Shown here: in pieces, positions 48,287-49,192 of the stretch
Layout of the letters: every line of letters begins with the position of its first letter
How positions within the stretch are numbered: the stretch's first letter is position 1
Translations under genes and position numbers: made by a program
NCBI GenBank assembly: GCA_964016885.1
Contig: OZ024741.1
Coordinates: forward strand, 46,066,001 to 46,130,000
Source: Eledone cirrhosa
Lineage: Eukaryota
DNA: 64,000 bases
Reading direction: 5' to 3'
The notes under the pieces: generated by a model
The model's database searches: none
What the model saw: only the letters and a program-made list of their open reading frames with translations
Told to the model about the DNA's origin: nothing

Positions 48287-48290
<4 letters not shown>

Positions 48291-49190
48291 AAATAACGAA
48301 ACGAAATTAAATTTCGTTTCGCTTCTAACTCACTTTTGTATGACTGACGCTTAAACAATTAAGTTAAAGTGTACATCTACATATGTATACGGAAGTATTA
48401 GTATGCATATAAATACACACATGTATACATATGTACATGTACTGAATTTTTCACTGGACACTTTACAGTGAGTGTCCAGCTAGTCTGTATGTAACCACAC
48501 AGGGTTTTAGAGTCATACGAGTTTGACCGGGTTTTAGAGTCAAACTCGTATGACTCTAAAACCCGGTCCGTCTGTGTGGGTACATACAGACTAGCTGGAC
48601 ACTCACTGTAAAGTGTCCAGTGAAAAACTCAGTACATGTACATATGTATACATGTGTGTATTTATATGCATACTAATACTTCCGTATACATATGTAGATG
48701 TACACTTTAACTTAATTGTTTAAGCGTCAGTCATACAAAAGTAAGTTAGAAGCGAAACGAAATTTAATTTCGTTTCGTTATTTGTTTTTATCGTTTCCGC
48801 TGAACCGGTGCGTACAATGACTCACGTTCTATGCAAATTAGTCTACCCACTACTAATTTTCATAGAAAAAGCATATAACGATATATGCTTTTACAATTCT
48901 CTAGAGAAGCCGGAAGATGGGTATATATTGCTGATGAGATGTAATAACATCGAAACTAGTCCAATATTCCTGTCTGGCTCTCTGGAGAATAGAGGAAATG
49001 TGTTTCCTTGAAAACTCGTATGACTCTAAAACCCGGTCCGTCTGTGTGGTTACATACAGACTAGCTGGACACTCACTGTAAAGTGTCCAGTGAAAAACTC
49101 AGTACATGTACATATGTATACCTGTGTGTATTTATATGCATACTAATACTTCCGTATACATATGTAGATGTACACTTTAACTTAATTGTT

Positions 49191-49192
<2 letters not shown>
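48287..49192 (+). mobile_element. Retrozyme-like family B: about 1.4 units of 470 bp with a ~240-bp inverted 5' arm, in (TA)n
   Basis: AAACTCGTATGACTCTAAAACC at 48542 and 49012; 48287-48527 is the reverse complement of about 48539-48788; layout homologous to family A. Confidence 0.88.
48925..48967 (+). ncRNA. Canonical type I hammerhead ribozyme (family B)
   Basis: ATATTG-CTGATGA-GATGT AATA ACATC-GAAA-CTAG-TC^CAATAT. All core nucleotides and the G-C stem II closing pair are present; GUC cleavage after 48961. Confidence 0.93.

Follow-up and report, generated by a model that had tools for sequence, protein, structure and literature searches.

A hammerhead retrozyme family in Eledone cirrhosa with a U6-type promoter-like motif and Penelope-type insertion ends

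What kind of element carries the hammerhead ribozyme at positions 48287-49192 of a 64,000-nt stretch of the Eledone cirrhosa genome (contig OZ024741.1, positions 46,066,001 to 46,130,000; hereafter, the window), and how would that element be transcribed and inserted? The original prediction, made from the letters alone, described a fully canonical hammerhead within a highly structured 470-nt unit, family B, that was homologous to a second family of the window, family A, and proposed it as the best candidate for experimental validation. We re-examined the interval by self-comparison of the window and by searches of the 3.0-Gb assembly.

The interval extends beyond a single unit. Read from the left, the insertion consists of a (TA)n tract, an inverted arm, a rearranged junction, a full 470-nt unit, a partial unit, a further (TA)n tract and a repeat of the left flank. 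Host flank with (TA)n lies at 48190..48286. The inverted 5' arm (48283..48524, minus strand, unit position ~250 to 1) adjoins (TA)n at its outer end, which is an end-point common to other insertions, and its segment 48283-48502 is a 220-nt inverted copy with 98% complementarity to 48572-48791. It is followed by the inversion junction (48499..48552), where a short deletion and a duplicated block point to template switches. The complete unit of family B, subfamily B1, occupies 48542..49011 on the plus strand, and a partial second unit (unit positions 1-181; 49012..49192, plus strand) stops at the upstream end-point without reaching a second ribozyme. The predicted 470-nt period proved real, as 48542-48722 and 49012-49192 are 99% identical; the inverted copy and the presence of a single ribozyme had both been missed. 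The 3' side (49193..49316) is made up of (TA)n and ~90 nt of duplicated left flank, which reappears at ~49228-49316. Long target duplications of this kind are rare among B loci, and their status as a family rule was rejected (5/71 scored loci, just one of them outside a microsatellite).

Every module named in the original prediction was found in place and in the order given, all on the plus strand. The 5' strand of a long-range helix (48548..48555) pairs with 48729-48736 and shows compensatory changes between families A and B. The CTGGACACT..AGTGTCCAG hairpin (48595..48620), whose loop-proximal pairs covary among B subfamilies, had been called an extra hairpin; it is present, but the A folds have a hairpin at the corresponding position. 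A small hairpin at 48711..48724 contains end-point 1 (unit 175-182), the putative start of reverse transcription, for which family A uses the homologous hairpin. The GAAAT..ATTTC palindromic hairpin (48753..48777) lies inside the "tail" between both end-points, and a T5 run with TTAT/CGTTT (48785..48796; TTATCGTTT at 48788-48796) forms end-point 2 at unit position 250. Downstream are an AP-1-like TGACTCA (48818..48824), the TATGCAAATTAG..CC element (48830..48847) containing the octamer ATGCAAAT (48831-48838), an AAAAG..CTTTT hairpin (48867..48892) with TATAA inside at 48874 and a predicted transcription start at ~48904, and the module GATGGGTA (48916-48923). The combined AP-1/octamer module held up in part. 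Both motifs occur here, but TGACTCA arises from a 6-nt insertion confined to one subfamily (2/10 B cluster representatives, none of three A copies checked) and was discarded as a conserved module.

The ribozyme is a type I hammerhead with an extended stem I (48897..48990, core 48931-48961), and exactly one is present at the locus. CTGATGA begins at 48931, GAAACTAGTC lies at 48952-48961 and TTCCTGT at 48967-48973 (plus strand). The conserved core (CUGAUGA, GAAA, GUC) is intact, stem II is GAUGU/ACAUC, stem I is predicted to reach ~48897, and cleavage is predicted after the GUC whose C17 is 48961. The description as fully canonical applies to the core and not to helix III, which consists of one A-U pair and a palindromic CUAG loop. 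A stable helix III was sought and is absent; alone it forms no fold (0 kcal/mol), and a 6-bp self-duplex reaches -6.2 kcal/mol. The best Rfam ribozyme match of B is Hammerhead_HH9 at 32.9 bits (E 3.5e-6), below the gathering score of 52, and the scan of the whole window at gathering level gave 0 hits. The matches to miRNA families at E-value level were set aside as reflections of inverted repeats and AT hairpins. The B helix III is likely of the weak type that needs a dimer. Judged from its sequence, a single hammerhead of this type would therefore release no monomer and may barely cleave alone, and the locus is a poor choice for a cleavage test because it has only one ribozyme with a weak helix III; the proposal that it is the best candidate for validation is not supported. 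Interval 48287-49192 is likely a dead-end product.

The claims of high structure and of homology to family A were borne out. As a circle, the B monomer has a predicted folding energy of -157.7 kcal/mol, which corresponds to a z of -11.3 relative to 60 dinucleotide-shuffled sequences; the circular folds of family A have z of -8.1 (A1) and -5.8 (A2), and the two families are 61-65% identical. In a joint fold of five A and B sequences, 24/129 predicted pairs are changed on both sides, and the helix 48548-48555/48729-48736 is paired in 5/5 with compensatory changes in 3 of its 8 pairs. Taken as a whole, the covariation term of this fold is marginally unfavourable (+0.76), for which indels are the likely cause. 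Among 10 B representatives, double-sided pair changes number 7 versus 3.3 +/- 1.2 in shuffles, a comparison in which the alignment also supplied the structure. The modelling thus supports the predicted branched RNA fold as common to both families. Family A itself is represented in the window by an A1 array (7344..8437, plus strand, period 471, two ribozymes), an A2 array (12733..13551, minus strand, period 421, two ribozymes) and an A2 copy with one ribozyme (22260..22910, plus strand).

Family B is dispersed and multi-copy throughout the assembly, from dimers up to multimers. There are 2,193 candidate B units, and the 40 that were scored are 98-100% identical and include one array of ~27 units. 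Arrays run head to tail and show no LTR architecture, with the hammerhead core recurring at a spacing of 463-470, and the 470-nt unit has 36% GC. No ORF of at least 200 aa occurs in the element. The fetched loci yielded 108 distinct ribozyme-to-ribozyme monomers in 10 clusters 3-14% apart. Almost all B variants have an unchanged ribozyme core, stem II covaries among monomers (A-U versus U-A), and the cleavage triplet reads GUC or GUU. We conclude that the element is almost certainly a non-LTR retrozyme. Other repeats of the window include a cluster of non-LTR retrotransposon ORFs of the endonuclease-RT type with an upstream zinc-knuckle ORF (23408-36153, minus strand), a 34-bp minisatellite of 96 copies at 97% (52295-55568), and an 18-bp array (1062-2565) inside a GIY-YIG-like fragment (ORF 911-2605, minus strand).

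The ends of the insertions bear upon how the element moves. Junctions were sought with a 23-nt pattern joining unit end 250 to a TA repeat, which matched 2,106 exact 3' junctions versus 0 for the control, and end-point 2 is accordingly joined to (TA)n in at least that many places. The first 90 junction matches on contig C1, less one duplicate (L188), gave 89 loci, in 17 of which the left end lay outside the fetched stretch. An inverted arm is present in 64/89 loci; its outer end falls at unit 175-182 in 47/55 resolved loci, and the direct arm ends at 250, both within (TA)n. When inverted loci were chosen by an internal query, 7/8 displayed the 250/175-181 end pair, in either order. Insertions of family A terminate at the corresponding sites, namely the homologous small hairpin and TTAT/CGTTT (1,870 junction matches versus 35 control), and its inverted arms reach the tail region in 8/12 loci by direct mapping, where a regular expression for such ends found 1/12. 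In vitro, the Penelope-like element (PLE) Poseidon-Ac is described as using two internal reverse-transcription starts that bound a tail, with both strands cleaved at AT-rich targets (PMC11167929), and the hallmarks of PLEs are given as tandem plus inverted copies that bear a one-ended tail (PMC8557442). From these sequence features, it is very probable that PLE enzymes mobilize the B element.

The 5' ends also constrain the template. They lie at the cleavage site in 4/147 cases versus 4.07 expected and at the predicted start in 1/147, and 56/83 arms continue through the promoter part, with arms extending to ~7 units. Because the ends do not cluster at either position and the arms cross the promoter part, the template was continuous, either a circle or an uncut multimer; a linear start-to-terminator RNA or a cleaved RNA as the main template was ruled out by the same positions. 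The absence of a pile-up at the cleavage site is also compatible with a non-cutting ribozyme, and it has been reported that ribozyme mutants had no effect on insertion by Poseidon-Ac in vitro (PMC11167929) and that 8/9 Xenopus dimers failed to cleave (bioRxiv 10.64898/2026.07.22.740005). PLE proteins might then reverse-transcribe uncleaved linear multimers, with arrays growing by DNA duplication and no circle involved. We regard this as very improbable, given the near-invariant core and covarying stem II and the distribution of A>G variants described below.

No B-like terminal repeat was found at 50 (30 + 20) PLE loci examined of 10,595 GIY-YIG candidates in the genome, and the broken PLE of the window showed no similarity to B in the window self-search. 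That PLE (39550-45630) encodes an RT with a C-terminal GIY-YIG, interrupted by stops and a frame change. It has hammerheads of its own at 41174 and 45257 (plus strand) and 39795 (minus strand), and its inverted 5' arm, two different end-points and (TA)n flanks give it a layout like that of B insertions. At two loci (L220 and L243), family B is inserted in (TA)n directly past the end of this PLE family. Promoterless U6atac copies adjoin or lie near (TA)n at L182 and L183, and are possibly retrocopies made by the same machinery. A 311-bp hammerhead array at L131 (contig C1:1240500-1245500) lacks the octamer; on visual comparison, the sequence that follows its ribozyme looks similar to the terminal repeat lying downstream of GIY-YIG locus L246, and the two may form a direct retrozyme-PLE pair. 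A 459-bp tandem repeat in (TA)n beside a PLE (L277:6010-6920) has TATGGAAATAAG, a GAAGCGAAA motif and no clear hammerhead.

The TATGCAAATTAG..CC element raises the question of a promoter within the unit. Host snRNA-type promoters were surveyed at loci L031-L044, L050-L070, L181 and L307-L309. Three U6 classes, MRP and U6atac carry TATG[C/G][A/T]AAT[T/G]AG at -76 to -78 with TATA at -30. The B octamer matches the element upstream of U6, U6atac, MRP and tRNA-Sec genes in 7/8 genes tested and is found in 0/12 U1/U2 upstream regions. A matrix was built from the five host genes (three U6 classes, MRP and U6atac), excluding three U6atac hits without a promoter pattern and U6 copies with a promoter insertion. 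It scores B at 18.7 and A at 18.3, host genes at 11.0-19.8 and 8 U1/U2 regions at no more than 4.3, and of 127,966 positions scored in the window the six retrozyme sites rank highest. Two tRNA-Sec genes outside the training set, with the motif at -79, score 19.8 and 16.4. The motif is absent from the host RNase P gene (matrix 4.5), which has U1/U2-like TCAGT instead.

The survey also characterizes the host promoters themselves. In U1/U2 promoters, AATTA lies at -89 to -91 and TCAGT at -56 to -58; in those of U6, U6atac, MRP and tRNA-Sec, TATGCAAATKAG is found at -76 to -79 and TATA at -30; and most snRNA-type promoters have TTACCTCCC near -260. The RNase P gene ends in T9 despite its U1/U2-like TCAGT. 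In the U6 array copies at L056 and L059, the promoter is split at the TATA box by a short insert, and apparently the same insert lies beside the B locus L005.

Across the genome, the octamer occurs 75-100 nt before a hammerhead core in 31,523 matches versus 13 for the control, these matches being copies of a few families and not independent. Hammerhead core matches number 274,171 versus 54,448 control, and the octamer is present in only ~14% of the excess. When 19 distinct loci were picked by octamer and TATA alone, the core downstream proved intact in 15, changed by one base in 3 and degenerate in 1. Motif, TATA and core also occur in families C, D and F, which align to B no better than shuffles. 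In an alignment of seven sequences almost all invariant columns fall in motif, TATA and core; since C, D and F were found via the octamer pattern, the invariance of their motif is by construction. Considering its sequence and position, the motif with TATA is likely the element's own promoter.

The same features could be read without a working promoter. The retrozyme would then depend on host read-through RNA, and the motif would be a relic, retained through inheritance or for the RNA hairpin that it forms. A review describes metazoan retrozymes as seemingly promoterless (PMC7761336), and octamer variants are inherited, as inferred for ATGCAAGT, which is common to 4 loci. The TATA box is found at the host spacing (46-48) in neither A nor B, where the distance from motif to TATA is 42 and 43, respectively, 3-6 bp shorter than in the host; it is 40-45 over all families. 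B, A1 and A2 lack the distal TTACCTCCC-like element that 11/15 host genes have, and by the same pattern it is also absent from 3/6 host U6-type genes. The motif lies within a stable predicted hairpin in A, B, D and F, but outside that hairpin in family C, and its sequence is conserved exactly even though the strand it pairs with varies. Together with the lack of other detectable similarity of C, D and F to B and the out-of-sample match to the host promoter element, this makes a promoterless element rather unlikely.

If the motif is a promoter, Pol III is somewhat more likely than Pol II to transcribe B. In a Pol II version of the same retrozyme and PLE mobilization, motif and TATA would recruit Pol II, T-runs would be ignored and long multimers made. 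The short motif-TATA spacing, arms of up to seven units and the precedent of newt satellite 2 (PMC2220036, PMC6765202) are compatible with such a scheme, as is the tolerance of T-runs within the unit. Each unit has T4-T7 runs which Pol III would have to cross, 50/88 B variant calls have an internal T-run of at least 4, and a common B variant has an internal T5. The predicted body is free of T-runs before the terminator in B1, A, C and F, an avoidance that is not significant (P 0.10-0.63 per sequence). However, strong T5-T9 runs close the predicted transcript at its 3' end in families A, B, C, D and F, and the motif is of the host U6 type and not the AATTA..TCAGT of host U1/U2, so that transcription by Pol II appears unlikely.

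Variants of the units offer a further view of the template. They were scored in 103 loci, with L188 (duplicate) and L155 (overlapping L145) left out. On the ribozyme strand, rare variants (seen in at most 5 loci) that are fixed across all units of a locus comprise 35 A>G versus 11 T>C (p 0.0005); the counts are 28 versus 9 for those seen in at most 3 loci, 27 versus 11 after removal of changes confined to the two most-edited loci (L195/L196), and 15 versus 8, not significant, for private variants. Among private variants, A>G accounts for 14/36 when present in all units of a locus versus 26/230 in single units (p 0.0001), where the spectrum is flat with no A>G excess; half of the shared private A>G (7/14) come from one locus, and some A>G variants are inherited between loci. 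ADAR disfavours a 5' G neighbour, and G precedes the changed A in 2/35 cases versus 17% in the background (p 0.049). The pattern fits one ADAR-edited monomer copied several times, and an excess in whole-locus but not single-unit variants is as expected of an edited monomer that is recopied, which argues against reverse transcription of uncleaved multimers. Part of the A>G bias could also stem from selection favouring pairing that tolerates G-U.

The sequence of events that we favour on balance, with its links of its own promoter, an RNA circle from a weak ribozyme and PLE copying into (TA)n, would run as follows. Motif and TATA would start transcription near 48904, just 5' of the ribozyme, and a transcript reading through into the next unit would contain two weak hammerheads. 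By analogy with axolotl HHR_Amex1, from which we infer the dimeric step, these would pair via ACUAGU and cut after GUC/GUU to yield a 470-nt monomer. A host ligase would circularize the monomer, and ADAR would sometimes edit the circle. Each strand of a (TA)n tract would be nicked by the PLE endonuclease, and reverse transcription by the PLE enzyme would start at unit ~178 and 250 and roll round the circle, producing tandem arms head to head. A broader and more tentative idea, which we consider possible though less probable than its negation, is that several hammerhead lineages without other common sequence each carry the host U6/tRNA-Sec promoter element in their unit and are self-promoting Pol III parasites; their circles would include the promoter, and the ADAR edits would be written into the genome by a twin-priming Penelope RT.

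Several known systems share parts of this organization. The promoter of schistosome SM-alpha is of the tRNA-like internal box type, unlike the upstream-type motif plus TATA of B. SM-alpha nevertheless resembles B in placing a promoter and then a hammerhead in tandem units, with Pol III transcription reported (PMC6765202, PMC2220036). Newt satellite 2 likewise has an internal snRNA-type promoter (PMC2220036, PMC6765202, citing Coats 1994); it is reported to be of the Pol II type, whereas the B motif is of the host U6/tRNA-Sec type with a TATA box. Helix III of axolotl HHR_Amex1 is also one pair with a palindromic tetraloop, and this ribozyme is described as efficient in dimers (PMC7229834). With Poseidon-Ac and other PLEs, B has in common two internal end-points bounding a one-ended tail, an inverted 5'-truncated arm, AT-rich or (TA)n targets and a minimal hammerhead (PMC11167929, PMC8557442); it differs in having no ORF, a tail of 68-75 nt versus 30-40, and no matching terminal repeat among the 50 PLE loci.

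Non-LTR retrozymes of metazoans and their link to PLEs are already in print (PMC7229834; bioRxiv 10.64898/2026.07.22.740005). As described in the accessible parts of these reports, they resemble B in their noncoding tandem units, type I hammerhead, GC below 45%, coexistence with PLEs, dimers to long multimers and a highly paired predicted circle. Published units measure 170-400 nt (PMC7229834) or 51-972 nt (bioRxiv 10.64898/2026.07.22.740005), compared with 470 nt for B, and the published case for PLE mobilization, in the same portions, rests on co-occurrence and terminal-repeat similarity. Those portions mention no internal U6-type motif, fixed (TA)n end-points or editing marks, and a literature search for which subscription journals and preprint supplements were mostly beyond reach found no U6-type element, tail-type ends or editing marks for animal retrozymes.

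The family makes the transcription and mobilization of retrozymes testable. Its motif, identical to the U6-type promoter element of the host, lies at a fixed distance before the ribozyme. The motif also describes the U6-type promoter of this genome, which is useful for the expression of guide RNAs. The insertion ends reproduce the two-start tail signature that was defined biochemically for a PLE, and the A>G marks common to all units of an insertion provide a genomic test of rolling-circle copying.
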